IMG/VR virus record: IMGVR_UViG_3300025809_001850
Origin: a virus
Lineage: Duplodnaviria > Caudoviricetes
Length of the DNA stretch: 64,000 nucleotides
Reading direction: 5' to 3' (one strand)
This document shows positions 23,560 to 52,336 of this stretch, piece by piece. The position numbers were made by a program, and so were the translations under genes. Every line of letters starts with the position of its first letter. Positions within the stretch are counted from its first letter, which is position 1. The notes below the pieces were generated by a model that worked only from the letters and a program-made list of their open reading frames with translations, was not told the DNA's origin and ran no database searches.

Positions 23560-23597
23560 TTTGTGGGTTTATTAAAGAATAAAAACCTAATATATAA

Positions 23598-23605
23598 ATA
23601 TTTAT
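23598..23605 (+). promoter_or_regulatory. Putative late promoter ATATTTAT
   Basis: Within palindrome ATAAATATTTAT 23594-23605; ATG at 23636. Confidence 0.6.
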
Positions 23606-23635
23606 TAAAAAGGAAATCTAGATATATATATTGTT

Positions 23636-24331
23636 ATGGGTTATTTAAATAATGAAACTATTACGGTCGAGGCAACTTTGACCAAACGAGGCAGAGAATT
23701 ACTTGCATCAGACTCCGGTTTGAATATAACAAGTTTTGCACTGGCAGACGATGAAATTGATTACAAGTTATACGATCCCGAGCATCCAGGTGGTTCTCAG
23801 TATTACGATGCAGCTATAAGAAATATGCCAATATTTGAACCATTGGCAGATGAAACGCAGGCACTTAAGTATAAGTTGGTAACCCTTCCGGCCGGAACTC
23901 AATATATTCCGTTGATTAAGTTGGGTCAACAGAGTATAACATTAGATAAAAACTACAATGGAGTGGTGAGTATATCACCAACTACTGATCCGGTATATAA
24001 TACAACACTTGGATACACGGCTGTTTTATCAGATAAACGAGTGGGATCAATAACAGGATCCGGAGTAGACGGAACTGCAGCTTCTTCCTCTGCTTTATTT
24101 TTGGGAGATACTTCAAGTGATCAAGCACAAACCGTGGTGGGTCTTACATTTACATTTCGTCCTAATTCAACTATTGACAAAGATAGAACTGCAACACTAA
24201 CCATCATCGGTAATGAAAGTGGTGGTTCGGTTACAATCCCGGTGAGAGTGTTCACCGACAACTTGGCAGAAAGTGGACTTTCCGATTCATTGAGTTTAGA
24301 CTCAGGATCACCAGCTAGTTCCAATTACTAA
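23636..24331 (+). CDS. Conserved-type virion structural protein
   Basis: MGYLNNETITVEATLTKRGRELLA..ITSFALADDEIDY; C-terminal Ig-like segment. Confidence 0.7.
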   Translation: MGYLNNETITVEATLTKRGRELLASDSGLNITSFALADDEIDYKLYDPEHPGGSQYYDAAIRNMPIFEPLADETQALKYKLVTLPAGTQYIPLIKLGQQSITLDKNYNGVVSISPTTDPVYNTTLGYTAVLSDKRVGSITGSGVDGTAASSSALFLGDTSSDQAQTVVGLTFTFRPNSTIDKDRTATLTIIGNESGGSVTIPVRVFTDNLAESGLSDSLSLDSGSPASSNY

Positions 24332-24332
24332 A

Positions 24333-25829
24333 ATGATTTACAAACAAATAGAAGATTCCGATAAAGTTTTTGGTCGTTCGTTACGAATTTCCACCGGAAC
24401 TTTCAACGAAGGATTTCAATTAAAAAGTATGCACATTGATGAAGATGAAGTTACTACCAGCATGGCAAAGTATATTCAATCGGGTGCAGGAACCGAGTCA
24501 AATCAAACAGACATAGATTTAACTACCCTTGACGCAGATGAACTTGAAATATTTGCACAGGGAACAAATTATGACTCGTATGAAGATGCGTTCACATTAA
24601 ATGGGTATTCTCCACAAATTACTGCTACGCAAAATTACCAACATGGTCATTGGACAGATGTTAGTTATGGTGATTATTATGCCAATGTTTATGACGAACA
24701 AACCAAGATAGGTGAAATAGAAAATGAAAATGCACAAGTTCAATTTTCGGTTTCATATGGTCATAAAACTGGACAAGGAAGTAGAATAGGAAGTCGTTCA
24801 TCGGCAGTTACGCAGGCAATATACAATCAGTACAGAAATATATTATTAGGTCCTGGTGATGATTCGTTTACATTTACATCTGACAACTCTGCTATGTCGG
24901 GTAAAGATAGAGATTCCTTTTTTGTTATTAACTTTTCAGCAGCTGCATTAAAAGATAGACTTGACGAAGGAAATTTAGAGTTCACTTTGAGTTTAACTGC
25001 ACGATTTGAATACGACATAGACAACAACCGAACTTTCATAGAGCAAACATTTTCACAGACATTTAGAGATGATTCTAGATTTGAAACTGAAGTTCTATCT
25101 GCAACGGGTGAGAAAAAGGTAGGAAAATCATTTAACATAATTAAAGGAACTCTTGCAGATGGAGCCCCACAGACAATAGATAAGTATGCAGTTGGAACAG
25201 GTGAGGGTTCTGGTGAAGGATTTGGTTTGTTGTATCCTGATCTTGGCTTACTTCTTTTGAATCCATATGCTCTTGCGTGTGAGTTTGGTACAAAAATTGA
25301 AACTTGGTATGATGAATGGTACGCAACCAATAAAACAAATATATTCCCTGCCAGAGAAAACAACGTAGGCAGAGCAATCGCATGGCCAGGAAACATAAAT
25401 CCTGATACAAACGATATAACGGTTTCAGATGATCTCAAGATGGGTATCGAACGAAATCACCAAAACTTTTTAAAATTGTTTTATATGCTAAAAAGTGGAG
25501 GGGATTTTAAATCAAGAAGTAGTGAGTTGATTCCTTCAAAGCATTATTTCATCCGAGTTAGAAACACAGATTTTAATTTTAGCAACAATCCAAGTTATAT
25601 AATTCAAAATGCAGAAGCACGATCATTGGCAACATCAACAGGAATGCCACTAGAATACTATACAGGTAGATTAAGGTTTGATTCGTTTTCAAATGACCCA
25701 AAATCATATATCACTACAATTGGTTTGTATAATGAAAATAATGAATTATTGGCAGTTGCAAAGTTGAGTGTTCCTGTTCTAAAAAGTTTTGATAGTGAGA
25801 CTCTCATTAAAGTAAAATTAGATTTCTAA
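24333..25829 (+). CDS. Virion structural protein (baseplate/tail appendage)
   Basis: C-terminal RVRNTDFNFSNNPS...YITTIGLYN..LAVAKLSVP domain shared with the next gene. Confidence 0.7.
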   Translation: MIYKQIEDSDKVFGRSLRISTGTFNEGFQLKSMHIDEDEVTTSMAKYIQSGAGTESNQTDIDLTTLDADELEIFAQGTNYDSYEDAFTLNGYSPQITATQNYQHGHWTDVSYGDYYANVYDEQTKIGEIENENAQVQFSVSYGHKTGQGSRIGSRSSAVTQAIYNQYRNILLGPGDDSFTFTSDNSAMSGKDRDSFFVINFSAAALKDRLDEGNLEFTLSLTARFEYDIDNNRTFIEQTFSQTFRDDSRFETEVLSATGEKKVGKSFNIIKGTLADGAPQTIDKYAVGTGEGSGEGFGLLYPDLGLLLLNPYALACEFGTKIETWYDEWYATNKTNIFPARENNVGRAIAWPGNINPDTNDITVSDDLKMGIERNHQNFLKLFYMLKSGGDFKSRSSELIPSKHYFIRVRNTDFNFSNNPSYIIQNAEARSLATSTGMPLEYYTGRLRFDSFSNDPKSYITTIGLYNENNELLAVAKLSVPVLKSFDSETLIKVKLDF

Positions 25830-25847
25830 GTATTTTTAACAAAAAAT

Positions 25848-25855
25848 ATATTTAT
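25848..25855 (+). promoter_or_regulatory. Putative late promoter ATATTTAT
   Basis: 5 nt before ATG 25861. Confidence 0.7.
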
Positions 25856-25860
25856 ATTTT

Positions 25861-28800
25861 ATGATAAAGAGTTTACGTGTATCAGATAAAACCGTCAGAA
25901 AATTTAAATCAGTTAAATCATGGAGGTACTCCACAATTGACTCCATGTCTGATTTAATGCTTGAGCAAACACAAACAGACGGAACTAAAATCGCACTGAG
26001 TATAAACACAAATCAATCGATTGCGCTTGAGCAAGCATCAAATACCACAAAAGTAAAAGTAAAATTTGGTAAGAATATGCAAGATAGATTTTATCCAGAT
26101 TCACATGAGTTTCATAATCCAACAACCGAACTAAAAAACACAGACGGGTCTTACTACAGAACAGTTTATTCTTCGGTTAAGCATTTATTCTATAACAAAT
26201 ATGGAATATATGATAACGAAGATGAAATTAAAAACCCGTTGATGGTTTTTGGTTCGGAAACAGGACACTACAAAACAACAGGTGACACAGGTGATGTACT
26301 AAGAGATAGTTCAGACCGATACGAAACCAGACGATTAACTGATAATGTATTGGTAATTGAATTTGCTAAATCTCAGTTTGGTGAAAAAATAAAACCCAAC
26401 AACTTTAAGATTACCGATTATAGTTCCCCATACGGAACTATTGAAATTGTTGATGATGGTTGTACAAACCTAGTCGTTAGTAACTCTTCGTTCAATGAAA
26501 TAACAGAGATATCTCATTCTAATTCCGATAAAATTGAAAATCCTGATAAATCAACAACATTCGATTCAAGTATGTTGTCGTTCGGAAAAAATATATCAGC
26601 TGAAGGTGATTATGTATTATCGGGAAGTCCAATGGATCAAGATTCACCGTCTGACTTTTTGGCAGGAAACGCATCTTTATTCAAGTACGATGTAACACAA
26701 AAACAATTTAGGTTGATTAGAAAGTTTAAGTGTCCATTTACTCAAGAAGGTCTGTTGTATGAATCTAAACAAAACTCTGATGGATTTTTAGTCACCGAGC
26801 TTGGAAATTTGGTAGCATCTGAAGATTACTCAATGAACGATAACTTTGGAGATGCGGTTGAATTACAAAATGGAACGTGTGCAATTGGCAGTTCTCGTTC
26901 CCACATAACATCTGCTTGCAACGAGTCAAGGCAAGGTCATGTATTCATATACGATATAAACAAGGGAGGAACAGAGCATTGGGGCCTTGTAAACATTTTA
27001 GAGGGAACTCCTGCATCAGAATTCGGTGCATCTATATCCGTTAGTGGAAATTTAATGGCAATTGGTGCTCCTGGTATGTACCACTGCGAAGGAGCAATAT
27101 ATATTTTTGAAAAGACAGTTCGTGATAAAACAACCCCTTGGTACAGAATATCAGACTCACATGATGATTTTTGTTTCAATGAACGTTCTGATAATTTTCT
27201 TGGGTTTCCTGTTTGCGACAAACTAGAAGAGTTGAACAAAACGATACACAGATGGAAAGTTGAATCTGCCACACCCGATGAATATCCACTGACTTACTTT
27301 TCTAATGATGAAGATATTTGTGAAGAACAAGAAATTGTTACATTTGACAATGAATCAGTTTCATCTCATGGATACGACACAAAACTACCTGTGTCAACAT
27401 ATCACGAATTTGAAAAGGGTCGTTATAGTCCAAAATATTCAGAGGGTGATGTAACTTGGAAACTCGTTACTATTGTCCGTCTTCCTGGAAGTAATATGCT
27501 TGGTCAAAAGGTTAAACTGAAAGGAAATTTGTTGGTTTCGTCTACACCTGATACAAGAACTCAAGATGTTTATGTATTCAAGAAACGAGTTAGTGAAACA
27601 TCTGGATGTGAAATGTGGGAACATACTCAAAAAATTAATCACGACAAAATTTACAATTATGATAGAAATCAACTATCATTGGGGGATGGAATTGAAAATG
27701 TGGTGTATCAACTAAACAGAAGTTCTATAACACTTCGTGTTGTCAATAAACCAGCAAATACTTCTAGTGTTGGTTTTGTTTGGAACTTAAATAAAGTCTT
27801 CGGCCAAGGTGAGGACATATATCAAACTAAGATTATGCACGGAGGTACTGTAAATGAAACCGATGAGTTAACTTTAAAAGATTTACCTTACGGTGATCAT
27901 GTGCTATACATAGGAAGGTATGACGGTGATATGTTGGTGGGAAACCCAACTGCGTTAAAGTTCTCCATCAATCCCACACTTGTAACTCCTGCATTACGAC
28001 CAACTCAGGTTAAATATCCATTTTCATATAACGAAACTAACTCTAGAAATTTTGGAATATCACTAGACACAAATGGTAGTCACTTATTCATAGGAGATGA
28101 CCGAGACCGAGAATATTCCGATTCGGATTTCAATTCAGTATTTAAAAAGACATTCAACGCAGGTGCTGTATATTTCTATAAAATAGAAGATACTTCGGTT
28201 GAGTTTATTAAAAAAATATATGAAGATGATGACGATGAACGACGTTATTCAAGTGGGTTTGGGTGTAGTTTATCTTTGTTAGGAAAGGATATACTGATAG
28301 GATCACCTTGCATCGAGCAAACTAAAATATCTATAATTGATAACGGAGCAAGTTTTGTTATACCTGACTTTTCATACGGTGTTGACAATAATGAAGAAAC
28401 TACCTTTATAGTTGGTCAATCTTTGTTTACTAAATTTGAACATGAATTTATTGGTGATGGTTACGTTGATTTAAAAATGATAATTGATGTTGCTTCTATT
28501 GATGCATTATCTATTGACTCAATTGATGATTTTGAGGTTAAGGCTTCCTTTTTATCAAAAGAACCAAGTAGAGTAGACGGTAAGTATGGTTCTTTTACCC
28601 GTGGTATTTATCGTGACAAAACTGAATACGATGGTCGCAATATAATATTTCATTTAAAAATTATTGGTCACGACTTTAATCCGGACGAAGAAATTGAGTT
28701 TATATATTACATACACAGAAACAGCATCCAAGGAACTGCAACCTATTGCAAGATAAGTGGTGCTGATGAAATAACTAAAATTAAAAACATCAAAACTATA

Positions 28801-36261: not shown

Positions 36262-36269
36262 ATATTTAT
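36262..36269 (+). promoter_or_regulatory. Putative late promoter ATATTTAT
   Basis: Intergenic; a second GTATTTAT overlaps ATG 36290. Confidence 0.6.
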
Positions 36270-36289: not shown

Positions 36290-37339
36290 ATGAGCAATTC
36301 CGAAGAAAATCAAGAAGTCCAAGAAGAAAGTCTTATCAAGGCTGGTCTTCGCAAAGGATATTTTACACTCGTTGAGGGTGTATATGATCCTGGTATTTTA
36401 AAAGCAGTATTTTTGGCAGGTGGTCCTGGTGCAGGTAAATCAGCAGTTGTAGATACCGTTTTTAATACAACACCCGAAGTAAAGTCATTAACTTCAACTG
36501 GATTAAAAATAGTAAATAGTGATAGTTCATTTGAGCATTTATTGAAAAAAGCAGGACATAGTTTAGATTTAGGTTCTTTAGACGATGATGTGTTTCAACA
36601 AATAACAAGTGATGATCCAAATTCAATTCGTTCACGTGCCAAGAACATTATGCTTAAACAATACGAGAATTACAAGAACGGTAGATTGGGTGTTATTGTT
36701 GATGGAACTGGTGATGATTATGCTAAGATATCAAAACAAAAGAAAGAGTTGGAAAAACTTGGATATGATTGTTATATGGTATTTGTTAATACAACACTTG
36801 AAGTTGCACAACAAAGAAATGCGTTTCGTGCAAGAAAACTTCCACGTAAAATTGTGGATGTTATATGGAAAGATGTTCAAAAGAATATGGGGAAATTCCA
36901 AAGTTCATTCAAGCAGAATTTTACGATTATTGATAACTCAGAAGATTTAAGAAGCAAAACAAAACCAGGAAAACTTAATCTTGCTCCTTTTATATTAAAA
37001 GCAACTGCAAAATTTATCGGAAAACCAATTCGCAATCCTATTGGTAAACAATGGATTACGTTAATGATGAAACATGATAGCATGACCAAAAGTGGAGATT
37101 CTAGAAATCGCATGAATGAGGATCTAGACATGGTTGATATGGAGGGTGTAATGTTACCTATGGACTTGGAACGGCATTTAAGTCGTTCTATATTTGTTAT
37201 TAAAAAATTTAAATTAAATGAAAGAAGAAATCTTGCGGTTTTATCTCGTCTGGTGGAGAGTTTGGAGTTAAACAGAAATCAAATGGTCAAGTATTTTCAT
37301 CACATTAGAACTTTGAAATTTAAAGGAGAGAAATCTTAA
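36290..37339 (+). CDS. P-loop kinase (zeta-toxin/AAA_33/PNK-like)
   Basis: AVFLAGGPGAGKS, IVNSD, GVIVDGTG, MVFVNTTLEVAQQRNAFRAR lid. Confidence 0.85.
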   Translation: MSNSEENQEVQEESLIKAGLRKGYFTLVEGVYDPGILKAVFLAGGPGAGKSAVVDTVFNTTPEVKSLTSTGLKIVNSDSSFEHLLKKAGHSLDLGSLDDDVFQQITSDDPNSIRSRAKNIMLKQYENYKNGRLGVIVDGTGDDYAKISKQKKELEKLGYDCYMVFVNTTLEVAQQRNAFRARKLPRKIVDVIWKDVQKNMGKFQSSFKQNFTIIDNSEDLRSKTKPGKLNLAPFILKATAKFIGKPIRNPIGKQWITLMMKHDSMTKSGDSRNRMNEDLDMVDMEGVMLPMDLERHLSRSIFVIKKFKLNERRNLAVLSRLVESLELNRNQMVKYFHHIRTLKFKGEKS

Positions 37340-37689
37340 TGTTTGATAAACTACTAGACGAACTTATTACCGAAGATAAGTTAGGAGAAATGTGGAGAAT
37401 AGAAATGGCTCCAAATCATGCTCGTTATAGTTTTTCATCATCAAAATCAGGAAATGAAAATTGGGCAAGAACCGTAGCAATTAAACTTACTCAAAAAGAA
37501 AAAGATGATTTTAAGTTCATTGGAATTTTTAGTGAAGGAGATTCTTCCGAAGGACCAATCGTAGACGGATACATATTTCATTGTACAGAAGAGTATTTAA
37601 ACAACGCACCTCATATGCATCGTGATAAAAAGAAGGCCTGTAAACGATATCTTAAAACAGGAAAAATAGAAGAATATTTAGAGGATTGA
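37339..37689 (+). CDS. Hypothetical protein
   Basis: TAATG-coupled ORF. Confidence 0.65.
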   Translation: MFDKLLDELITEDKLGEMWRIEMAPNHARYSFSSSKSGNENWARTVAIKLTQKEKDDFKFIGIFSEGDSSEGPIVDGYIFHCTEEYLNNAPHMHRDKKKACKRYLKTGKIEEYLED

Positions 37690-37691
37690 TA

Positions 37692-38216
37692 ATGAGCATC
37701 AAAGAATACAAACAATATAAAGACGATCCGTTTTGGATGAAGTCAAAGTATGATGGGGTCTCCGGTGAACAAAAATTACCTGTTCAACGAAGATTGCGTA
37801 AAGGTGAAGTAAAATTTAAGAAGGGTGATGAAATACTTTATTATCCAAAAGGAAAAGTAATATTAGTCGGAAAAAAAGCAGAACAAGCATATCGTGATTT
37901 TCAAGCAGCTGCATCTGATGAAGATTTTTATATGTCTCAATACGAGGAATCAAACATGAAAACAACAAATGAAGTAAAACTAACAAGTCCTGAATACAAG
38001 AAAGCTCTGAATTTTATGTCAAATATGCATTCTAGTATTTTGAAGGCAAAAGACAAAGTAATCAAGTTCTTACAAAGAAAGGGGTTTGACGAAATGGCTG
38101 ATGAACTTACAAAAATGTCAAAAGGTGAGTTTAATAAATTCGTTACCCAAAAGGTATACGAAAATAAACTAAGAAAGCATATTCGTTCTATTTTGTCTGA
38201 ATTGTTAGAGAAGTAA
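37692..38216 (+). CDS. Hypothetical protein (modular)
   Basis: Track start 37686; ATG 37692 follows the upstream stop. Confidence 0.65.
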   Translation: MSIKEYKQYKDDPFWMKSKYDGVSGEQKLPVQRRLRKGEVKFKKGDEILYYPKGKVILVGKKAEQAYRDFQAAASDEDFYMSQYEESNMKTTNEVKLTSPEYKKALNFMSNMHSSILKAKDKVIKFLQRKGFDEMADELTKMSKGEFNKFVTQKVYENKLRKHIRSILSELLEK

Positions 38217-40754
38217 ATGACACAACCCACCACATCCTCGTATACAACCGATCTTACTGAATATATGCTTGGTGACTTGTTGACAGAAGCATCAACTATC
38301 ACAAAGGTAATCGGAATTTATCCAGGTAGATTTCAACCTGCTGGTGCTCACCACTATAAAACATACAAGTGGTTAGACAAACAATTTGATGAAGCTTGGG
38401 TTGCCACAAGCAACAAAACCGATTCTACAAAAAGTCCACTGAATTTCAAAGAAAAGAATATGATATGGAAAAAACACAAAGTAAAAAATGTTGTTCAGGT
38501 TAAAAATCCGTATGTATGTGCAGAGTTATTGGATAATTATGATCCAGAAACTACTGCGGTTGTTTATATATTTGGAGCAAAAGATGCAGGTAGACTTAAA
38601 ACTAAAAAGGTGGATGGCACTGCCGGTTATTATCAGTCATATGAAAAAAACAAAAACAACTTAGAACCATACGCCAAGCATGGATATTTTATTGTTGCTC
38701 CTCATGTAAGCATCAAGGTTCTCGGAAAAGAAGTAAACGGAACATACATCAGAGACCTTCTTGGTAGTCCAAAATACACCGACTCCCAACGGGTTGAAGC
38801 ATTTGAGGAACTCTTTGGTTGGTATGACGAAAAAATTTATGTGTATCTAAAAAAGAAATTCAGCACGTTATACGAAAACGAAGAACTATTTGAATCTTTC
38901 TTAAAAGAGTATCCTGGTTATGAAAAATCTATTCCGAAACTTTTAAATGAAGTTAGTTCAATTGCAAGATCGGGCATCCAACTTGTTGACGATGGTCCTG
39001 GTTCCTTTTTTCCAGGTGATGTTTATGAAAAAGACAGTGATGTCCGTGTAAAACAACTTGGTTATGACTTAGTCGATTATGTTGTTGGAAAAAACGACCT
39101 TGGTCGTAATATGGATTATCGTGAATGGGGAAAATATGCAGGACCGGTGCCTGCGGTAAGTTTTTATCCAGCAGGAGTTACAGACGAAACAACCGCAAAT
39201 AATCAAATTTCGATTGTTAAAAGTAAATCTGCTCATGATCAATGGGTTGAATTTATTAACGGTATTGCAGAAACTTCCGGATATAAACTCATTGACTTTG
39301 TCGGTTCGGAAGCATCCATCAGAAAAGATGATAAAACCGGTGAAGAGAATATAGACGGAAATACACTTGATATAGAAGACGAAGAAAAAGAAGATAAAAT
39401 TGATAAGGGTGTTGAGGGCCAAGCAATCAAAGAAAAAATTGAATCTATACTCAATGACTACACAGAACTTTTAATTGAAGGAGGTGCAGCTGGTCATATG
39501 AGTCATCCATTTGACGATAAGGATTTAACGTTTGCCGATTTAAAAGAAATGATTCGTAGGTCACTTGCAGGTGAACTTAATGTTGAAAAGGAAGTTACTG
39601 AAAAACTTGATGGTCAAAATTTGATGTTCTCTTGGAAAGATGGAAAGTTGGTCTCGGCGAGAAATCAAGGTCATTTGAAAAACGCAGGTGCGGCCGCACC
39701 TGATGTTACTCAGTTTGAAAACATTTTTGCGGATCGTCCTGAGAACATTCGTGATGCGTTCGTAACAGCAGTCAAAGATTTAGAATCTGCTATTTCAAGT
39801 TTAAGTGATGCACAAAAGAATAAAGTATTTAAAGAAGGTGAAAGATTTATGAACATAGAGGTGATGACACCTGCAACACAGAATGTTATTCCTCAAAATG
39901 TAGATATGTTGGTTTTCCACGGAACACAAGCATACGATTCCGCAGGAAAACCAGTTTCAGTAGACTCTGATGGAAACGACATAACAAGTGAATTAAAAGA
40001 TTCTGCTCGTATGCTAAGTGGTATGCTCAAGCAAATCAATGCGGATGTTCAAAGTCGTTATTCATTGAATGCACCAATTGTCGTGGAACTTCCTAAAAGT
40101 AAAACATTCGGAGATTCGTTTAAAAAGTATTCTGCGATGCTTGACAAACTCAAAAAAGAATTTAAATTAAAAGACAACGATAAAGTAATGAAGTATCACG
40201 ATTCTTGGTGGAGAAATCTTTTGAATAAACAACAAAGCAAATTAAAAGAAATATTTCCTGCAAAAGTATATGAAGCACTTATAGGTCGTTGGGCATACAA
40301 TGATAAATCAAATAAAATTACAACGATACGAATGGACTTATCTGAACAACCCAAGTTGAAAGATTGGGTAAACAAATTTGAAAAAGAAGATATCGTAAAA
40401 CAATTTGAAGCAAATATGTGGCCTTTCCAATTTATATTTTTGAAACTAGGAGCAGAAGTTCTTCAAAATGTAAAAGGATTTGTGGCAGCTGGTGGAAGTG
40501 ATGACATAGCAAAAGCACTCGATGCACATACCAAAACATTAGAAAACAAAAAAATTAATTCGGTGGAATCACCTGATAAGTTCAAAAAAGATATGGCCAA
40601 ACTACACAAAAATCTTGATCGTCTTACTGCAATTGGTGGAACGAAAGTAATCGCACCAAGTGAAGGAGTTGTATTTCAATATAAAGGTGGTACATATAAA
40701 CTCACCGGAACATTTGCTCCTATAAATCAAATTATGGGAATAATGAGGTTTTAG
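38217..40754 (+). CDS. Tri-modular protein: HIGH-superfamily nucleotidyltransferase + unknown VDDGP module + ligase-fold adenylyltransferase (DUF6267-like)
   Basis: IYPGRFQPAGAHH..SPLNFKEK; ligase-like motifs TEKLDGQN (I), NIEVM (III), SEGVVF (IV), YKLTG (V). Confidence 0.75.
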   Translation: MTQPTTSSYTTDLTEYMLGDLLTEASTITKVIGIYPGRFQPAGAHHYKTYKWLDKQFDEAWVATSNKTDSTKSPLNFKEKNMIWKKHKVKNVVQVKNPYVCAELLDNYDPETTAVVYIFGAKDAGRLKTKKVDGTAGYYQSYEKNKNNLEPYAKHGYFIVAPHVSIKVLGKEVNGTYIRDLLGSPKYTDSQRVEAFEELFGWYDEKIYVYLKKKFSTLYENEELFESFLKEYPGYEKSIPKLLNEVSSIARSGIQLVDDGPGSFFPGDVYEKDSDVRVKQLGYDLVDYVVGKNDLGRNMDYREWGKYAGPVPAVSFYPAGVTDETTANNQISIVKSKSAHDQWVEFINGIAETSGYKLIDFVGSEASIRKDDKTGEENIDGNTLDIEDEEKEDKIDKGVEGQAIKEKIESILNDYTELLIEGGAAGHMSHPFDDKDLTFADLKEMIRRSLAGELNVEKEVTEKLDGQNLMFSWKDGKLVSARNQGHLKNAGAAAPDVTQFENIFADRPENIRDAFVTAVKDLESAISSLSDAQKNKVFKEGERFMNIEVMTPATQNVIPQNVDMLVFHGTQAYDSAGKPVSVDSDGNDITSELKDSARMLSGMLKQINADVQSRYSLNAPIVVELPKSKTFGDSFKKYSAMLDKLKKEFKLKDNDKVMKYHDSWWRNLLNKQQSKLKEIFPAKVYEALIGRWAYNDKSNKITTIRMDLSEQPKLKDWVNKFEKEDIVKQFEANMWPFQFIFLKLGAEVLQNVKGFVAAGGSDDIAKALDAHTKTLENKKINSVESPDKFKKDMAKLHKNLDRLTAIGGTKVIAPSEGVVFQYKGGTYKLTGTFAPINQIMGIMRF

Positions 40755-40756
40755 AA

Positions 40757-41803
40757 ATGGAAGTTGATGAACGAAATTTATCTCGACAGGCCAGAAGAAA
40801 ACTCGCAATGGTTGCAAAACGAAGTGCAAAAAAACGACAAATAAAGAAAAAGATGTTTGCAAAGAGAATGAAGTCTCCTGCCAAGTTAAAAGCATCTTCT
40901 GAGAAAGCAGCCAAAAATCTTATAGTAAAGAAGATGCTTGGTGGAAAAAATTACTCTGATTTATCAATAGGTCAAAAAGAACTTATAGACAAAAAACTAT
41001 CTACCAAAAAAGGTTTAATAGCAAAGGTTGGTAAAAAACTTTTACCAAAGATTAAAAAAAAAGAAAAGGAACGACTTAAAAAGGTGAGAGCAAATAATCA
41101 AAACACAGAAGAATTATCCGAGGACACACATGGAGTTTTAACATTGAGTGTAAATGATTCACAACCAGAAGTATCTGCGAGATATGTAACTGGAAAACTA
41201 AAACCTTATGTATTTAAAACAAGAGAAGATGCAAAGCTACATTGTAAAAAAGTCGGTGGGAAACCGTTTGAATCAATTGACACGGGTCGGTTTTATGTAG
41301 AATTTACTAAACTTGATGGACCAGTAAATGAGAAGGTCGAATACAAGAACGCAAACGAAATAAAGAAACAATGGAAATTAGAATACCCAAGTGCCAAGTT
41401 TACTTTCAAAAAAGTTCGTGCAAAAGGAAACGAATTTTTGATGGTATTATCTCCAACGGGTGTTGAACTTGAGAAATATCAATTTGTACCAAAAACAGGA
41501 TGGACTGAAATGAACGAAAATAAAGATAACGAAGAAGATGTAAAAGAATTAAAAGCAATGCTTGATATTGCAAAACTGCTGAGTGATCAAAGTTCATACT
41601 TTAAAGGTCGTGGTAGTAAAAAAGAATATATCAAGATGCTCGTTCATAAAATAAGAAACTTATCAGAAGCAAAAAAGAAAAAGTTTATGTCTAAAATGGA
41701 TGCTTACGCACGGGTAAGAAAATCAACTATGCCTAAAAGCAGACCAATGAAAAGCAAAAAATCATACAACCGAGTAGATTTAAAAAAAGGTAAATACGAT
41801 TAA
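40757..41803 (+). CDS. Highly basic multi-module head-associated protein
   Basis: Lys/Arg-rich modules separated by LSE/VNE/MNE/LSE. Confidence 0.6.
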   Translation: MEVDERNLSRQARRKLAMVAKRSAKKRQIKKKMFAKRMKSPAKLKASSEKAAKNLIVKKMLGGKNYSDLSIGQKELIDKKLSTKKGLIAKVGKKLLPKIKKKEKERLKKVRANNQNTEELSEDTHGVLTLSVNDSQPEVSARYVTGKLKPYVFKTREDAKLHCKKVGGKPFESIDTGRFYVEFTKLDGPVNEKVEYKNANEIKKQWKLEYPSAKFTFKKVRAKGNEFLMVLSPTGVELEKYQFVPKTGWTEMNENKDNEEDVKELKAMLDIAKLLSDQSSYFKGRGSKKEYIKMLVHKIRNLSEAKKKKFMSKMDAYARVRKSTMPKSRPMKSKKSYNRVDLKKGKYD

Positions 41804-41820
41804 TTTCGTAGATGTAGTTA

Positions 41821-42234
41821 TTGGAACGACGTGTGATTAGGTTGAATGGCAATGTTTATTTAACGGAAGACGAAATTGATGACATCGTTCACACCACATT
41901 AAATCAATTTAGAACTTCTCATCGTGCAATACTTCCAAAAAAAATAACTTACCTTGATCGTGAATTTGTAGACGCATTGAAAGACGAAGCAAAACACGCA
42001 ATATTGAGTGTATATTATTTATATGGATACGGAGAAAAATACGCACCCGTTAAAAAAATTACAAAAGCAATTTCAGATAGATTTAAAGAAACAGATCAAT
42101 GTTGTGAAAAGCTGTATTTTATGCAATATGACTTAACAGACACTCAACGCAAAAAATATAGAACTCAGTATGAAAACTTCTTAATCAACACATTACTGGA
42201 AGAGTGTATACAAAAATTTAAAAAGTTATCATAA
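41821..42234 (+). CDS. Hypothetical protein
   Basis: ORF fills the gap; TTG start uncertain. Confidence 0.55.
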   Translation: MERRVIRLNGNVYLTEDEIDDIVHTTLNQFRTSHRAILPKKITYLDREFVDALKDEAKHAILSVYYLYGYGEKYAPVKKITKAISDRFKETDQCCEKLYFMQYDLTDTQRKKYRTQYENFLINTLLEECIQKFKKLS

Positions 42235-42237
42235 TAT

Positions 42238-42266
42238 TTGACAAAATACAAAAAGAATGGAATAAT
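42238..42266 (+). promoter_or_regulatory. sigma70-type promoter
   Basis: TTGACA 42238-42243, 17 nt, AATAAT 42261-42266; ATG 42273. Confidence 0.55.
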
Positions 42267-42272
42267 AAGGTT

Positions 42273-42899
42273 ATGGCTAAAATGGATAAAGACGATTTGA
42301 AATATGTGATCGGTCGATCACGTAAGTTGTTCAAAGGAGAAGAAATTCCCAAGGTACATGGATACGAAGGAGAAGTTGAAGAACTTGTTATTCGTCAACC
42401 CGGTGAAATCTGGACAGATAAAAACGGAAAAGAGTGGAAGCAAGTGGGTTCTAACTCAAAGGTAAGAACTGAAACTTTAATGGACAAAGTCAGAAAGACT
42501 CTACGGGAAGCACCCAAGTGTCCAAAGAAAATGTGTACTGTTGATCCAACCAAGAATTTAGATAAAAGAATGCTTGCTATGCGAGGTATGTGTTTTGATT
42601 GTGTTCAAGAGCATGAACAAAAACTAAAAGACGAAGGTAAGTATGAAGCATACGAAGCAAAGACAATGCTTGAAAATGAACTTAGTTTTTTGTCTGACAC
42701 CAAAAGTAAATTGGTTGAATCAAAAGAGCATATAACAAACGACCCTAAATTTCTGAATGAAGATGGTTCTCTTGAGCAATGGAACATTCCAAATAAAAAA
42801 GAACTTATGAAAGATTTGGAATCAGACTTGGAAGAGCTTGAAGCAAGACTTTCTGAAATTGAGGACAGGTTAACTGAGTATGCAGACATCAAGTTCTAA
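42273..42899 (+). CDS. Hypothetical Zn-binding coiled-coil protein upstream of terminase
   Basis: CPKKMC...MCFDC; C-terminal coiled coil. Confidence 0.7.
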   Translation: MAKMDKDDLKYVIGRSRKLFKGEEIPKVHGYEGEVEELVIRQPGEIWTDKNGKEWKQVGSNSKVRTETLMDKVRKTLREAPKCPKKMCTVDPTKNLDKRMLAMRGMCFDCVQEHEQKLKDEGKYEAYEAKTMLENELSFLSDTKSKLVESKEHITNDPKFLNEDGSLEQWNIPNKKELMKDLESDLEELEARLSEIEDRLTEYADIKF

Positions 42900-42952: not shown

Positions 42953-42960
42953 ATATTTAT
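42953..42960 (+). promoter_or_regulatory. Putative late promoter ATATTTAT
   Basis: 5 nt before terminase ATG 42966. Confidence 0.7.
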
Positions 42961-44593: not shown

Positions 44594-45202
44594 ATGAAGA
44601 AAACGCCGATTATACTCACCCTCACGGGTCTATTATTACTAACAGGAGGTTGTGCAACACAATCGTTGCTACCTACTAGGGGAGTGTACACGGAGTCTTT
44701 GTATGATACATATAACGAAGTGGAGGTTGTTGTTAATGAGATTGTAGTGGGTAAGACATCATACTCCGATCTTGTTAAGATGGGACTTGATTTAGAAAAT
44801 ATACCAAATGTAAAACGTTTAACATATCTTGATGTTATGAGTAAGTTTAAATTGGATAGTCCATCTAGATTTACTTTGTTTAATAAAATAGAACTACCTG
44901 CGGGTGTATTAAAAATGCTTGCATCACGTGAAAACGGACTAGCATATGAAATAAATTTGGAAAGACTTAAAAACAAACGAGAAGGAAGTGTACTTTTAGA
45001 TATGCTCAATTTCAGAAAAATAGTTCACACGACTGGATGGAAAATCAGTGTACTGATTCTTATCGTAGATGATACGGTTGAATATGTTTTGTACTCAGGT
45101 GAAAAGAACATTGATCGTTTAGAAAAAGAGAAAAACCCACTTGGTCCTTTCCAAGGATTTGATGGTGGTGATATTATTGGAGCTGCAAGTGAGTTTCAGT
45201 AA
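44594..45202 (+). CDS. Putative lipoprotein (moron between terminase and portal)
   Basis: MKK + hydrophobic stretch + LTGG-C lipobox-like site; AGGA SD. Confidence 0.75.
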   Translation: MKKTPIILTLTGLLLLTGGCATQSLLPTRGVYTESLYDTYNEVEVVVNEIVVGKTSYSDLVKMGLDLENIPNVKRLTYLDVMSKFKLDSPSRFTLFNKIELPAGVLKMLASRENGLAYEINLERLKNKREGSVLLDMLNFRKIVHTTGWKISVLILIVDDTVEYVLYSGEKNIDRLEKEKNPLGPFQGFDGGDIIGAASEFQ

Positions 45203-47179: not shown

Positions 47180-48049
47180 GTGAAAAAGTTAAAACATAGC
47201 AAATATAAGAATACCGGCATCCTGTTTGAATTACTTGTCAGACAAATAACCGCTGATATACTCGATGGCAATGCAGAATCACCTGCAAACAAATTGCTAA
47301 AGAAACATTTTTCTGAAAATACTTCGCTTGGAAAAGAGCAAAGATTATATCAGTTGTTGATAGAAGAATCTACAGGTGATTCGTCAAAAGCAGATACACT
47401 TCTCGGTGTTGTGCTTGATTCCCACAAAAAACTTCTTCAAACGGAACTTGTAAATGCTAGATACGAGTTGGTTAAGGATATTAAAGAATCGTATCCAATA
47501 AATGATTTATTTCGTTCCAAGATAAGAAACTATAAAACATACGCAAGTATTTTTAAATTGTTTGAAAGTCACAATCCAACTATATATTGTGACCCCAAGG
47601 AAATATACGAATCAAAAACAACTGTTCTACAGAATTTATGTTCTCGGGGTTCTGAAAAAAATGAGGTTGTAGATGTCAACGAATATGAAAAACAAAACGA
47701 AGATTTAAGACTAATTGCGTATAAATTGTTGGTCGATAATTTTAATAAAAAATACAGTACCCTTGACGATGCCCAGCAAAAACTTCTTAAAAATTACATA
47801 AATAATATTTCAAATACGAATAGTTTGCGTGAATACATCAACAAGCAGGTTCCTTCAATCAAAAATCAAATCAACGAATACTCAGATTCAATAGAAGATG
47901 ATGTTGTTAAAATAAAGTTAAAAGAAGTAATTTCTCAACTTGACAAAACAACCGAAGGAAAAGTTGTAAAGGATTCTCAAGTATCAACACTTTTAATGAG
48001 TTACGAGTTGATAAAGGAGTTGAAGAAACACGCAAATGAAAAAAAGTAA
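47180..48049 (+). CDS. Hypothetical head-morphogenesis protein
   Basis: KHSKYKNTGILFELLVRQIT; located between portal and protease. Confidence 0.7.
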   Translation: MKKLKHSKYKNTGILFELLVRQITADILDGNAESPANKLLKKHFSENTSLGKEQRLYQLLIEESTGDSSKADTLLGVVLDSHKKLLQTELVNARYELVKDIKESYPINDLFRSKIRNYKTYASIFKLFESHNPTIYCDPKEIYESKTTVLQNLCSRGSEKNEVVDVNEYEKQNEDLRLIAYKLLVDNFNKKYSTLDDAQQKLLKNYINNISNTNSLREYINKQVPSIKNQINEYSDSIEDDVVKIKLKEVISQLDKTTEGKVVKDSQVSTLLMSYELIKELKKHANEKK

Positions 48050-48512
48050 TCTTAAAGACATCATAAGAACAATTCTTCAAGAACTTGAAGAAGAATCTAA
48101 ATTGTCCGAAGTTAATACCACATCAAATGTAGATGGATACGAAACTCCTCATGCATTTAGTGGCAAGGATGAAGATGAACACGCAGAAGACATAAAGTCT
48201 AACGCAGAGGTGTTTGATTACAAGTCCACAGAAAATAAAAAAGCAAACACTATAAAACTAAACGAGGGCAGAAGTTTGTTTCACTTGTTCAGAGATCATC
48301 CTGATTATACACCTGAGCAAAAAGTGGGAGTCGCGGTACGAGAAATAAATAAACTTATGACTGAAGTTGAAAAATTGTTAAAAGTTTCTACACGGTATAA
48401 AGCAGAGGCAAACGTGAACAATAGTAAAATGTGGAAAACGACAAATAGATTTTTATTAAAAATAGACGAAAAGATTAAACGCATTTCTTATAAAATAAAA
48501 GAAATGAAATAG
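48036..48512 (+). CDS. Hypothetical internal head protein candidate
   Basis: MKKSNLKDIIRTILQE leader; LSE and LNE sites. Confidence 0.65.
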   Translation: MKKSNLKDIIRTILQELEEESKLSEVNTTSNVDGYETPHAFSGKDEDEHAEDIKSNAEVFDYKSTENKKANTIKLNEGRSLFHLFRDHPDYTPEQKVGVAVREINKLMTEVEKLLKVSTRYKAEANVNNSKMWKTTNRFLLKIDEKIKRISYKIKEMK

Positions 48513-48909: not shown

Positions 48910-49737
48910 ATGTGTGAGTGTGGATGTGGAAGTTGTGAAGTTGTAGAATCGGAATCCAATGCCGATCCAAGTATAGACAACTATAAATTGGCACTTAAAA
49001 ATCTAGGTGGTGCAATTAAATCTGCACACAAAACGGAAGAAGGAAAAAAACTCTCTGCTGAGTATTGGCTTGATATAGTTAGTTTACTCAAAAAAGCAAA
49101 ACTTGGTGTTTCTATGATGGAACTCGGAATTGATGACGAAGAAGAAATCAAAAACACGCACGATACATCCATTAAAAAAGTAAAACCAACACCAGATGGA
49201 GAAAAAGGTGAAGGTGGTCCACGTGACGGGGAATCATCTGATTCAGATAAATCTACATCCGAAGGTATAATTGAAAAGTCTGCATCAAAATCACAACAAA
49301 GATTGTTTGGTATGGTTCATGCATATAACAAAGGTGATCTTAAAAAAAGTGATGTAGATTCTGATTTGTATGATAAAGTAAAAAAAATTGCAAGTGGGAT
49401 GACAAAAACAGACGCAGAGGATATGGCCAAAACGGATCACTCTGATTTACCTGAAACAATTCCAACTGACGAATTTTACGACACAATGAATCATCTTAAC
49501 ATTTTATTGTCAGAGTATTCATTTGATAAGATAGAAAGTGGTGGGTCACAGGTTAGCATAGATACCAATGATCGCAAATTCACTATAAAGTTTGATGATA
49601 AGTTTTATATGGTTTCTCCGGATTACAACTTTGAACTCGGAAATATATCCGATTTGAATGAAGTTGTAGAGAAATTTGTCAAATTAACAAAACAATCAGA
49701 ATTTTTGTTAAAAACAGAGTATGAAGCATCTGTTTAA
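48910..49737 (+). CDS. Modular head protein with Cys-rich N-terminus and DUF3008-like module
   Basis: MCECGCGSC; IIE|KSASKSQQRLFGMVHAY..KKIASGMTKTDAEDMAKTDHSDLPE. Confidence 0.6.
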   Translation: MCECGCGSCEVVESESNADPSIDNYKLALKNLGGAIKSAHKTEEGKKLSAEYWLDIVSLLKKAKLGVSMMELGIDDEEEIKNTHDTSIKKVKPTPDGEKGEGGPRDGESSDSDKSTSEGIIEKSASKSQQRLFGMVHAYNKGDLKKSDVDSDLYDKVKKIASGMTKTDAEDMAKTDHSDLPETIPTDEFYDTMNHLNILLSEYSFDKIESGGSQVSIDTNDRKFTIKFDDKFYMVSPDYNFELGNISDLNEVVEKFVKLTKQSEFLLKTEYEASV

Positions 49738-49795: not shown

Positions 49796-50425
49796 ATGGC
49801 AAAAAAATTATTAGTATCCACCATGCCCTTTGAATTCAGTCCTGAGCAAATAAGTGAAAGTATTGAAAAAAACTCGGGTAAACTTCTTGTAAGGGGAATT
49901 CTACAAAAAGCAACTGAACAAAATCAAAATGGTCGTGTTTATACACGGTCACTGTTGGAACGAGAGGCGGGCAAATATAACGAACTGATAAATGATAGAC
50001 GTGCACTGGGAGAACTTGATCATCCAGAAAGCAGTGTAGTTAATTTACAGAATGTAAGTCACAATGTTAAAAAGATGTGGTGGGAAGGTGATAGTCTTCT
50101 TGGTGACGTTGAAGTTTTAGGAACTCCGTCTGGTAATATTTTAAAAGAATTGTTTAAGGCTGGTATCACACTTGGTATAAGTTCAAGGGGAATGGGAACT
50201 ACTCGTGAAAGTGAAGGAAAAACTATGGTCAATGATGATTTTGAATTGGTGGCATTTGATTTTGTTAGCAATCCATCAACCAGAGGTGCTTTTTTAGAAC
50301 CTGTGAATTTAAACGAATCAGTTTCACCTGAACTTAAAGTCATAACCGAAGACCGAGTGTGTACCAAATATTGTAAACTTGAGGGAATCGTACATGAAAT
50401 ACTCGGAGAGATTGGAGAAATGTAA
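49796..50425 (+). CDS. gp21: Prohead core protease (T4 gp21-like)
   Basis: GILQKATEQNQNGRVY, ALGELDHP, LGISSRGMG, FDFVSNPST; TTATTTAT variant 4 nt upstream. Confidence 0.95.
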   Translation: MAKKLLVSTMPFEFSPEQISESIEKNSGKLLVRGILQKATEQNQNGRVYTRSLLEREAGKYNELINDRRALGELDHPESSVVNLQNVSHNVKKMWWEGDSLLGDVEVLGTPSGNILKELFKAGITLGISSRGMGTTRESEGKTMVNDDFELVAFDFVSNPSTRGAFLEPVNLNESVSPELKVITEDRVCTKYCKLEGIVHEILGEIGEM

Positions 50426-50886
50426 TGAATAAAGAAATCTCTAAATTAATCAAGTCTACGATTTTAGAAGTTCTCAAAGAAGAACGAACTAAACAAATCA
50501 ATGAATTTAATCCAAAAACAGGTAGGTTTGAAGACGAAGGTTTGTCAGCTGACCAAAAAAAGTTAACATCTGAGAAAATTTCTAAGTTCGGAAATTATCA
50601 GTCATATATCACTCACGAAGCAAAAGATACGGACATAGCAGAAGATATATGTAATATCGTTGAAAATGCATCTAAGTATATTCTCAATGAAACAGATGAT
50701 TGGTTTGATGCAATGAGTGTAAAACGTAATCTAAAAGAAATCAAAACTCTTGCTAAAGAATTTCACAAAACTGCAAACGAAAGACAAGTATACACACAGC
50801 GTATGCAAAGTTTGTATGAAGATATGGGTAATATCTTAAACAGATATTTTGAAATAAACGGAGAAACTACCAATGAACAAACGTGA
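50425..50886 (+). CDS. Hypothetical head protein
   Basis: MNKEISKLIKSTILE leader. Confidence 0.7.
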   Translation: MNKEISKLIKSTILEVLKEERTKQINEFNPKTGRFEDEGLSADQKKLTSEKISKFGNYQSYITHEAKDTDIAEDICNIVENASKYILNETDDWFDAMSVKRNLKEIKTLAKEFHKTANERQVYTQRMQSLYEDMGNILNRYFEINGETTNEQT

Positions 50887-51601
50887 ACTTAAAAACTATA
50901 TAACGAAAGTATTGCTTGAGAAGTTAGAACAAACTCCGGTGGTTTTCGGTAAACTTGTAAAGAAAACAATTAGTTTCAGTGGAATACAACGTGAAATTGT
51001 CTGCGAAGGCAATGTTACAGATGCAAACGAATACGCAACACAAAACAAATTAACATTTACATCAGAAGAAACTGCACACTTCGGAGGTCACTTTAATAAC
51101 GAAATGACTTCATATGAATTCCACCCAAATCCAGAGTTCTACGGAGAACTCATGGAAACGTCTATGTCTGCACGTGAACAACTTGCACGTATATGTGGAA
51201 CGAACGACCAAGTACTAACTGAGGTACACGTACAAAACGCAGAAACTCTGGTTAACTTTGTTTGTACAAACGAGTTATTTCGTGAAGAACGAACAAACAT
51301 GGTGTTTGAGCAAATCAATAGTAGTATAAAAGGTTGTTTGTATGACAAAACTCAATTTACAAAATTATTTGAATATCTAGTAAAACAATCGTGTATATCA
51401 TATACAGAAGATAAAATAGAATTATCTGAATCTGAATTTGAGTATGCGACTACACTTCTTTCCAAACGTTTTTTTGAGAATCAAGAAGAACTAGAAGAAC
51501 TAGAAGAAGATAAAACCAAGTGTGGAAAAAAATCATTTAAAACAGGTAGTGCATTTGAAAATATGCAAAGAATAAAATCAGGTCACCAAATGTTCCTATA
51601 A
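50873..51601 (+). CDS. Hypothetical head protein
   Basis: MNKRELKNYITKVLLE leader. Confidence 0.7.
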   Translation: MNKRELKNYITKVLLEKLEQTPVVFGKLVKKTISFSGIQREIVCEGNVTDANEYATQNKLTFTSEETAHFGGHFNNEMTSYEFHPNPEFYGELMETSMSAREQLARICGTNDQVLTEVHVQNAETLVNFVCTNELFREERTNMVFEQINSSIKGCLYDKTQFTKLFEYLVKQSCISYTEDKIELSESEFEYATTLLSKRFFENQEELEELEEDKTKCGKKSFKTGSAFENMQRIKSGHQMFL

Positions 51602-51613
51602 GGAAATATAATT

Positions 51614-52336
51614 ATGAAAATTACAAAAAAAGAACTAAGAGAAGTTATCCAAGAAGTCGCAGAAGAACTTGGACTATTTGAAGGCTTAACAGCCGCACAA
51701 GAAAAATTACCAGAACCTTTGAAAAAAGCAATTCTTAAAAAGCAAGGTAATTCCGATTCATCTGATGATGAAACAGAAGATGTTGAAGAGGGATTAACAG
51801 CCGCACAAGAAAAATTACCAGAACCTTTAAAAAAAGCAATTCTTAAAAAGCAAGGTAATACTGAAGAATCGGATGATGATTCGGAAGAAGAGTCAATTGA
51901 AGAAGGCAATGCTTTCGGTGCGGCCGTAAAAGCTGCTCGTGAAAACGGAGACAAAGAGTTTGAAGTTGCGGGTAAGAAATACAAACTAAAAGAAAAGAAA
52001 GAAATTACCGAACAAGAAGACACCGAAGAATTTACAGGTGAAGACGAAGACGATGTAGAAGAAGGTAACGCATTTGGTGCAGCTGTAAAAAAAGCAAAAG
52101 AAGACGGAGACACAGAATTTCAAGTTGACGGAAAAACTTACAAGGTAAGTGAAGACTGGTCTAAAATAAAAGAAGTCTCTGATTGTTCGTATGAAGAAGA
52201 CGATGAAGACATCGAAGAAACGGTAGATGCAGAATTCGAAGTTGGTGGCAAAACATACAAGGTTCGTGAAAACTGGACCAAGATAACCCTTGCCGAAAAA
52301 CTAGACAGAATACTCGGAAATCGCAAAATTTTGTAA
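51614..52336 (+). CDS. Acidic repeat-containing internal head/core protein
   Basis: 2x EGLTAAQEKLPEPLKKAILKKQGN, 2x EEGNAFGAAVK..GDxEFxVxGKxYK plus one partial copy. Confidence 0.75.
   Translation: MKITKKELREVIQEVAEELGLFEGLTAAQEKLPEPLKKAILKKQGNSDSSDDETEDVEEGLTAAQEKLPEPLKKAILKKQGNTEESDDDSEEESIEEGNAFGAAVKAARENGDKEFEVAGKKYKLKEKKEITEQEDTEEFTGEDEDDVEEGNAFGAAVKKAKEDGDTEFQVDGKTYKVSEDWSKIKEVSDCSYEEDDEDIEETVDAEFEVGGKTYKVRENWTKITLAEKLDRILGNRKIL
51680..51859 (+). repeat. Near-identical 72-nt direct repeat within the internal head protein gene
   Basis: ...ttaacagccgcacaagaaaaattaccagaaccttt(g/a)aaaaaagcaattcttaaaaagcaaggtaat occurs twice. Confidence 0.9.

Follow-up and report, generated by a model that had tools for sequence, protein, structure and literature searches.

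The head of bacteriophage T4 holds internal proteins and the enzyme Alt as cargo, which is ejected with the DNA. Each of these proteins carries a short leader, in which L/I-x-E comes last and a small residue follows. Capsid targeting in T4 relies on a 10-residue sequence in which positions 8 and 10 are determinants of processing, and the prohead protease gp21 cuts after L/I-X-E (PMC9026906). Polyvalent proteins are another kind of proposed cargo; they consist of two to more than five shuffled enzymatic modules predicted to travel with DNA, and are released by built-in peptidases (Iyer et al. 2017, PMC5512222). Described here is a locus with similarities to both, found in a 64,000-nucleotide (nt) stretch (termed the window) of the 151.8-kb IMG/VR virus record IMGVR_UViG_3300025809_001850. 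The locus, at positions 36290–40754, encodes a P-loop kinase (P0001) and a three-module protein (P0004). Positions are those of the window unless stated otherwise, and all window features described are on the + strand.

P0001 (36290–37339) is an open reading frame of 349 amino acids (aa) assigned to the Zeta-toxin/AAA_33 kinases by Pfam, PHROGs and invariant residues. P0004 (38217–40754, 845 aa) contains a HIGH-fold nucleotidyltransferase domain at residues ~25–230 (38289–38906), recognized by a structural model and Foldseek; a VDDGP module at residues 246–421 (38952–39479), which is conserved and has no assignable fold; and an RNA-ligase-fold covalent nucleotidyltransferase domain at residues 422–845 (39480–40754). 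A preliminary description, made from the DNA letters alone, had named both open reading frames with their motifs and coordinates, and all are present as it gave them. Its domain calls (P-loop kinase, HIGH-fold transferase, VDDGP module without assignment, ligase-fold domain) hold by Pfam, models, Foldseek and invariant motifs.

The explanation favored here is that the kinase, the HIGH transferase, the ligase-fold domain and the VDDGP module form one functional enzyme set kept among marine T4-like phages, and that this set is capsid cargo in this lineage; the sequence evidence puts this slightly short of an even chance. The kinase and P0004 proteins would be made together with the structural genes, and their leaders would carry them into the prohead core. 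There a gp21-type protease would cut them into separate enzymes, which would later be ejected with the DNA into the host. Inside the host the enzymes would act jointly on one substrate. Their most likely action would be the phosphorylating and sealing of broken nucleic-acid ends, RNA first with DNA possible, with the HIGH-fold domain serving to produce or renew an adenylylated donor or intermediate. Taken by themselves, packaging and processing in this lineage appear evenly balanced for and against, judging from sequence and from the analogy to T4.

Module boundaries and the prohead protease

P0001 begins with a 29-residue leader (36290–36376), a candidate propeptide or capsid-targeting leader that ends at TLVE29↓GVYDP (the arrow marks the proposed cut). 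The P0004 leader has 24 residues (38217–38288), with a predicted helix at residues 6–22, and ends at LLTE24↓AST (position 38288); distant homologues start with MNKLVEEIIKPILE↓A. Two further sites lie inside P0004, one between the transferase and the VDDGP module (LLNE245↓VSS, ending at 38951) and one between the VDDGP module and the ligase-fold domain (LLIE421↓GGAAGH, ending at 39479). In the P0004 model, E24 and E421 end helices that border low-confidence segments.

Conservation of the P0004 sites was determined in 17 homologues with 43%–85% identity. E24, E245 and E421 are invariant, and the [LI]xE triplet is kept in 17/17, 16/17 and 17/17, respectively, while flanking residues vary. P0004 has nine more [LI]xE triplets, most of them not conserved, but the one at E220 is kept in 16/17. 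Among the P0001 homologues E29 and G30 are invariant and L27 is nearly so; in 115 of 116 kinase homologues the core is immediately preceded by [LI]xE, with leader lengths that peak at 10, 29 and 51 aa.

A larger set of ~150 cluster representatives was used to determine how often [LI]xE occurs within 20 aa upstream of a module, with random 20-aa windows as background. It is found upstream of 57% of the SH3-like modules (described below), 63% of the transferase domains, 93% of the VDDGP modules and 84% of the ligase-fold domains, compared to a background of 14.6%. This is a 4–6 fold enrichment, and the distances to the modules are nearly fixed. Control tripeptides ([LI]xD, [LI]xQ, [ST]xE and others) are at or near background. 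Stand-alone forms of the modules start with short leaders of the same type: MRNIGPYLIE↓GG, MTELLTE↓GG, MIPFILKE↓G, MYNDLLVE↓D and MKTLKE↓L.

The site pattern might be coincidental. In that case these would be ordinary multidomain enzymes and [LI]xE would come from Leu/Glu-rich helical linkers. The tripeptide is short, the 12 copies in P0004 are the average density for this phage, and a random 20-aa window holds [LI]xE 15% of the time. This explanation appears very improbable, since the site positions are fixed relative to each module, the sites are kept at 43% identity while neighboring linker residues vary, and [LI]xD, [LI]xQ and [ST]xE show no enrichment.

The window encodes a gp21-type prohead serine protease (49796–50425; Peptidase_S77, 6.2e-27; phrog_207, 4.7e-52), which is the proposed cutter of the [LI]xE sites. 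As with the T4 internal proteins and Alt, there is a short leader ending in L/I-x-E before a small residue, a gp21-family protease in the genome, and a location of the genes beside the head module. The leaders of the kinase and P0004 families match, in sequence and by analogy, the T4 gp21 specificity and the capsid-targeting format. There are also differences. The putative cargo is a multi-enzyme polyprotein that would be cut at internal junctions as well, and leaders are 24–29 residues long in this phage and 10 residues in many relatives. Release by a prohead protease at L/I-x-E would also differ from the built-in peptidases of polyvalent proteins.

Cyanophages provide virion data for a distant homologue of the transferase. 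The S-CREM2 cytidylyltransferase gp154 and its neighbors gp155, gp156 and gp160 were found by mass spectrometry in CsCl-purified virions, and kinases and NMNAT-like/cytidyltransferase proteins recur in cyanophage virion proteomes (PMC10665884). The gp154 leader is MKNFSSFLTE↓A, i.e. it ends in LTE↓A, and [LI]xE is present within the first 18 residues in 4/4 of the detected proteins and in 0/3 of the undetected neighbors. Like the transferase described here, gp154 is of the HIGH type, with the signature GR[FY]xPxxxxH and TS..K.P.xF..K; virion proteins of this kind are also reported in S-CBWM1, S-SZBM1 and S-SCSM1. In contrast, gp154 is a single-domain protein of 286 aa and is distantly related, and the S-CREM2 study suggested no targeting leader and no processing by a protease for it. 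It displays clear homology to the transferase of Pelagibacter phage HTVC008M (E-value = 8e-36). The preliminary description placed a T4 gp21-type site before each module, and this is borne out by strong and specific conservation of the sites, an encoded Peptidase_S77, leaders that resemble the T4 capsid-targeting sequence, and a distant homologue in S-CREM2 virions.

A candidate late-type promoter element, ATATTTAT, lies at 36262–36269, 28 nt 5′ of the kinase ATG. The motif occurs 22 times in the window compared to 7.5 expected, and none of 100 shuffles gets to 22. Most + strand copies in the window are 12–115 nt 5′ of start codons, including those of the TerL, putative scaffold, neck and sheath genes. 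Genome-wide, 31 of 38 + strand copies are close upstream of an open reading frame (examples in whole-record coordinates are 16, 22994–28625, 49234 and 126585). It is from this common upstream motif that the kinase/P0004 set is read as possibly late-made. Annotation with PHROGs of the ATATTTAT-preceded open reading frames outside the window, aimed at late specificity, gave no informative match. The motif is also found 5′ of two paralogous open reading frames of ~520–540 aa that start with M/VD[VI]VEHYL.

The ligase-fold domain, its family and DUF6267

The ligase-fold domain starts after LLIE421↓ and carries a GGAAGHMSHPFDD motif. Motif I, EKLDG, is at 39600–39614; motif III, NIE, is at residues 546–548 (39852–39860); motif IV, EGVV, is at residues 816–819 (40662–40673); and motif V consists of K823..K828, with YKL at 827–829. 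No variation is seen at E462, K463, D465, G466, E548, E816, G817, V819, F820 or K828 across 59 sequences of this domain, and almost none at K823.

When modeled alone, the domain reached a predicted local distance difference test score (pLDDT) of 89.8. In a Foldseek search of the PDB the top 45 matches are all RNA/DNA ligases or capping enzymes (E-value 0.02–1). VIA alignments gave Z scores of 7.9 with NgrRnl, 7.3 with T4 Rnl2, 7.2 with REL1 and 7.1 with T4 Rnl1. Each covers ~185 residues and spans model positions 10–428; thus the C-terminal strands complete the core. These scores are modest by themselves and the invariant motifs add weight. Because the modest fold scores combine with the invariant E-K-x-D-G, E548, P-x-E-G-x-V-F and K823/K828, the C-terminal domain of P0004 is, by motifs and model, a predicted member of the covalent nucleotidyltransferase superfamily, nearest to the RNA ligases that lack an oligonucleotide-binding (OB) domain.

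Two features are unusual: a helical insert of ~250 residues before motifs IV and V, and an invariant GGxxGHxxHP(F)DD motif ~35 residues N-terminal of the lysine. The domain is covered by no Pfam family. Nor is it a member of the T4 Rnl1 family, to which the preliminary description had pointed. The Rnl1 family PF09511 has no match in P0004 at E-values up to 1, and the template-modeling (TM) score to RnlA clusters in the Atlas is 0.35. P0004 ends 17 residues past motif V and has its helical region before motif IV, unlike the Rnl1 family, where a helical tRNA-binding domain comes after motif V.

A similar fold and motif order are found in DUF6267 (PF19782), which is present in 469 phage records, mostly of T4-like cyanophages, and adjoins a gene annotated as "cytitidyltransferase" where annotation was shown. 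The DUF6267 and P0004 C-terminal domains superimpose with TM scores of 0.69/0.77 over 348 residues, and a language-model feature score is 0.96. The order in DUF6267 is HLEHLEDD .. VKWDG .. helical insert .. PEGYV..K..KL, i.e. both have HxxHxxDD, KxDG, a long helical insert, and EGxV..K at the C-terminal end, and both have a HIGH transferase as partner. The DUF6267 profile has no match in the phage record at E-values up to 1. Using hhalign, alignment of the ligase-domain profile with the HTVC008M DUF6267 failed, and with the DUF6267 alignment it gave a probability of 0.5%. The tie between the two thus appears in fold and motifs and, in contrast, not in profile or profile-profile matches. A further difference is that in cyanophages DUF6267 and the transferase are separate genes of the replication module. 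A literature search on "cytitidyltransferase", DUF6267 and Mel-JY01 found nothing, and a survey of pelagimyophages does not mention these genes (PMC7029224). In S-CAM3 the DUF6267 gene is annotated from an internal Leu (region ~4989–5012 of the sequence examined). Starting from an in-frame ATG further 5′ yields MSNIKQLKHLEHLEDE and brings back the conserved HLEHLED; the deposited start thus probably lies too far 3′.

The family is large. A profile search yielded 4015 clusters at 50% identity with a family match, of which 1376 have E ≤ 1e-30. The common denominator is the ligase-fold module, which is found alone, C-terminal, N-terminal or in the middle of proteins of 417–1985 aa. P0254, P0248 and P0249 have SH3-like, Zeta kinase, HIGH transferase, VDDGP and ligase-fold modules in one chain, and in other relatives there is also a Tox-ART-HYD1, DUF6782 or C45 hydrolase-like module. 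The effector-type modules (Tox-ART-HYD1, C45 hydrolase) are like those of polyvalent proteins, and were counted in favor of injected cargo. Relatives with Zeta-like kinase, ADP-ribosyltransferase (ART) and peptidase modules, and with the ligase-fold module in variable order, share this likeness. In contrast, the combination of HIGH transferase and ligase-fold domain is absent from the polyvalent protein survey (PMC5512222).

Two relatives that are 84%–88% identical to P0004, P0008 and P0011 (1152–1156 aa), have an extra N-terminal module of ~310 aa, which resembles C45 autoproteolytic acyltransferases/hydrolases (NF040521, 8.9e-9) and joins the transferase via YLTE↓EIETIFE↓N. The SH3/KOW-like module (GDTxxxG[KR]FKNK..ING) is small and recurs in P0111, P0254, P0196 and others, and in HTVC008M at 7480–7992 of the sequence examined. 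It is found inside P0004 homologues, fused to kinases or as a separate gene, and has no Pfam family. DUF3008 was considered as a candidate for this module and was found not to be the same.

Gene neighborhoods are conserved as well. In a relative with 45% identity the order SbcCD .. kinase .. 907-aa P0004 homologue .. TerL–portal is kept. Microcystis phage Mel-JY01 has a transferase plus ligase version upstream of TerL. In HTVC008M four consecutive genes encode DUF6267, the SH3-like protein, a kinase sharing 46% identity with P0001, and a HIGH transferase. The preliminary description had named co-occurrence of kinase and ligase-like genes as something to look for in relatives, and it was found, both as fusions and as adjacent genes. 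Because they are fused in relatives and share conserved neighborhoods, the kinase, transferase and ligase-like modules are considered to be functionally linked; judging from the fusions, the three modules must serve one pathway.

Which pathway this is can be read differently. The proteins could be unpackaged, cytoplasmic replication/repair enzymes. The ligase-fold domain and DUF6267 would then provide these phages with the nick-sealing ligase that is otherwise missing, kinase and HIGH transferase would assist by end phosphorylation or by providing an adenylyl donor, e.g. nicotinamide adenine dinucleotide (NAD+), and the [LI]xE triplets would be uncut linker or N-cap features. A canonical DNA ligase was not found in the 151.8-kb record: there is no PF01068 match, and PF01653, the adenylation domain of NAD-dependent ligases, gives only a weak, sub-threshold similarity around motif I inside P0004 and no genuine match. 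In S-CAM3 and HTVC008M the DUF6267–cytidyltransferase pair lies between the gp41 helicase and nrd/primase genes, and the S-CAM3 pair is without LxE leaders. The genes in the window come right after primase and SbcCD. Some clades have Met or Cys in place of Glu at the ligase junction. Because of the lacking canonical ligase and the position of the cyanophage/HTVC008M pair in the replication module, this is a serious rival, and is regarded as possible although doubtful. It does not account for the presence of [LI]xE, but of no control tripeptide, before five unrelated modules in shuffled orders, for the 6–10-residue leaders ending in LxE on stand-alone forms, or for the toxin-type ART and hydrolase fusions in relatives. 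In addition, the nearest structural neighbors of the ligase-fold domain are OB-less RNA ligases, and purified virions were found to contain a transferase homologue (PMC10665884).

Possible chemistry of the enzyme set

The P0004 model was built from a 90-sequence alignment and has a mean pLDDT of 83. The HIGH-fold domain is modeled confidently at residues 28–230 (pLDDT >90), and Foldseek matches it to NadD, NadM and PPAT (probability 1.0, E-value ~1e-3, TM score by target 0.5–0.65). In place of HxGH, P0004 has GRFQPAGAHH, which lacks the first His and keeps an invariant last His; relatives in other clades carry the canonical GRFQPFH[AKS]GH. In the second ATP motif, GTxxR, residues G175, T176 and R179 are invariant. 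The Pfam match to PF01467 (19.0 bits) is under the cut-off of 21, and there are weak NCBIfam matches to NMNAT. Since the PPAT matches are equal to the NMNAT ones, the HIGH fold does not give the substrate, and neither NMN nor ADP-ribose is singled out by the analysis. In the VDDGP module D258, G260 and P261 are invariant; pLDDT is mostly <70, and no Pfam family, confident model or Atlas match was found.

The P0001 kinase matches Zeta_toxin (2.1e-10, 40.8 bits, cut-off 22.3) and AAA_33 (3.3e-7, 31.2 bits, cut-off 27) in Pfam, and phrog_12810 at 1.9e-35. It displays a Walker A motif, GGPGAGKS, at residues 44–51, Asp78, and an RNxxRxR lid at 176–182. Residues G44–K50, D78, R176, N177, R180 and R182 are invariant in homologues. 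A conserved C-terminal extension follows the kinase core and has no function assigned. Hints of a substrate are weak, i.e. PSTK and "polynucleotide kinase" (phrog_505, E-value = 0.001). Sequence-based PDB profile searches with the A1 and A2 alignments gave only spurious or sub-threshold matches (ribosomal eS6, PSTK).

Restoration of NAD+ or nucleotide cofactors is one possible function. As in NadR, the kinase would phosphorylate a riboside, e.g. nicotinamide riboside, and the HIGH domain would turn the product into NAD+ by adenylylation. This NAD+ would be used by the ligase-fold domain, unless that domain adenylylates another target, and the set would offset NAD-depleting defenses or poor host pools. 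By structure and by profile, the HIGH domain is matched best by nicotinate/nicotinamide mononucleotide adenylyltransferases, kinase–HIGH transferase fusions occur in relatives as they do in NadR, and the cyanophage virion cytidyltransferases are treated as NMNAT-like in the literature (PMC10665884). Yet the PPAT matches are equally good, the kinase matches Zeta_toxin/AAA_33, and weakly PSTK and polynucleotide kinase, rather than the NadR ribosylnicotinamide kinase family, and the first His of HxGH is gone in this clade. The most conserved module, the ligase-fold domain, is also left without a role. This explanation is therefore considered improbable.

Nucleic-acid end repair finds its models in T4 Pnk/Rnl1, fungal and plant Trl1, and bacterial Pnkp. 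In all of these, and here, the kinase is a P-loop enzyme of the PNK/Zeta/AAA_33 class and its partner an OB-less RNA-ligase-fold lysine nucleotidyltransferase; the two are fused in some relatives of P0004. The present set differs in that it has no phosphatase or cyclic-phosphodiesterase domain and no Pfam RNA-ligase match. It also has its helical region before motifs IV and V and not after them, an extra N-terminal HxxHxxDD, and an added HIGH transferase. A phosphatase domain was not detected in P0001, P0002, P0003 or P0004, and P0001 thus lacks the phosphatase half of T4 Pnk, to which the preliminary description had pointed. As the main chemistry of the set, end repair is a tentative assignment that stays on the doubtful side; replicative nick sealing appears rather unlikely in that role, and NAD-type cofactor restoration quite unlikely.

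Several points weigh against the set being injected repair cargo. For this phage the explanation is a prediction from sequence and structural models. A cyclic-phosphate healing domain was not found, and an RNA-repair pathway would therefore be incomplete. At the ligase junction, GGAxGH is preceded by Met or Cys instead of Glu in 23 of 136 representatives; thus LLx[E/M/C]GG may partly be a domain motif. Invariance also extends to the residues that follow the kinase and ligase sites, and part of the signal may therefore belong to the domains. The DUF6267 and transferase of S-CAM3, the one cyanophage pair examined, have no LxE leaders and lie in the replication module; packaging is therefore not universal in the family. 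The relation of gp154 to the P0004 transferase domain is distant (hhalign E-value = 8.6e-4, probability 23%), and the S-CREM2 authors caution that abundant proteins may co-purify with virions (PMC10665884). Finally, ATATTTAT is found also 5′ of a DnaK-like Hsp70 gene (106–2037 of the record) and of many unannotated open reading frames, so that reading it as a late promoter, while reasonable, is tentative.

Extended beyond this lineage, the proposal is that marine T4-like phages use their prohead protease for polyprotein processing. A modular family of >4000 clusters with T4-like leaders and L/I-x-E cuts would provide an injected enzyme set that repairs or modifies nucleic-acid ends or cofactors at the start of infection. 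Its core would be an RNA-ligase-fold enzyme with a permuted helical insert, including DUF6267. This wider proposal is somewhat doubtful. Capsid-targeted cargo (PMC9026906), virion-associated cytidyltransferases (PMC10665884) and polyvalent proteins (PMC5512222) are already known. What appears not to have been described previously is the ligase-fold family and its tie to DUF6267, the constant partnership of three enzymes, and the interpretation of the junctions as prohead-protease sites that split a polyprotein into injected enzymes.

If packaging and cutting do occur, a multi-enzyme kit would be injected by phages that are abundant in the ocean and infect SAR11-type and related hosts. The T4 capsid-targeting/gp21 system would then be a general device for cargo loading and polyprotein processing, and no peculiarity of T-even internal proteins. 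Packaging aside, the ligase-fold domain and DUF6267 would constitute a very large enzyme family, always with a HIGH-fold transferase partner. To our knowledge, marine T4-like phages are notable for having no recognizable ligase, and an activity assigned to the ligase fold would supply a function that has long seemed missing from their genes. Each predicted cleavage site defines an exact N-terminus, for which existing or new virion proteomes can be searched.

Setting of the locus and neighboring genes

The window is AT-rich (~34% G+C) and nearly all genes are on the + strand. Genes for baseplate wedge, TerL, a T4-type portal and major head protein in the window indicate that the phage is a T4-like myovirus. 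The locus has recombination genes on one side, with SbcC immediately 5′ of the kinase, and terminase and the head module on the other. A megablast search of the region against phages showed no near-identical DNA, and tblastn of P0004 against cultured phages yielded three records only.

After the copy at 36262–36269, the next ATATTTAT is at 42953, before TerL. Since there is no copy in between, 36290–42899 may be a single transcription unit. P0002 (37339–37689, 116 aa) starts with MFDKLLDELITE↓D. In the relative P0170 (484 aa) the kinase and a P0002-like protein form one polypeptide with the junction ELLAE↓G; by this fusion P0002 is assigned to the kinase functional set. P0003 (37686–38216, 176 aa) is in the same gene run and has no significant family match in Pfam or PHROGs.

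Directly 3′ of P0004 is P0006 (40757–41803, 348 aa), a Lys-rich basic protein whose sole match is phrog_23027 (function unassigned). Whether it is part of the enzyme set is uncertain. It is extremely Lys-rich, and its likeness to DNA-associated internal proteins is one of composition only. P0006 was also considered as the fusion partner of P0004 in the 1152-aa relatives; this was ruled out, as the extra part is the N-terminal C45-like module.

Between the portal and major head protein are small acidic open reading frames (48036–48512, 50425–50886, 50873–51601 and 51614–52336) with an amphipathic leader followed by [LI]xE, e.g. MKITKKELREVIQEVAEELGLFE↓G. Their [LI]xE density is 3–5 times that of other genes, and by sequence they are likely core or internal head proteins. 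The head module also encodes a 275-aa protein (48910–49737) with a Cys-rich start, MCECGCGSCE, and a DUF3008 segment (E-value = 2e-5); a distant relative has a DUF3008 protein upstream of TerL. A 202-aa open reading frame between TerL and portal (44594–45202) starts with MKKTPIILTLTGLLLLTGGC, which has the look of a lipoprotein signal peptide with a lipobox and is odd in a packaging/head module.

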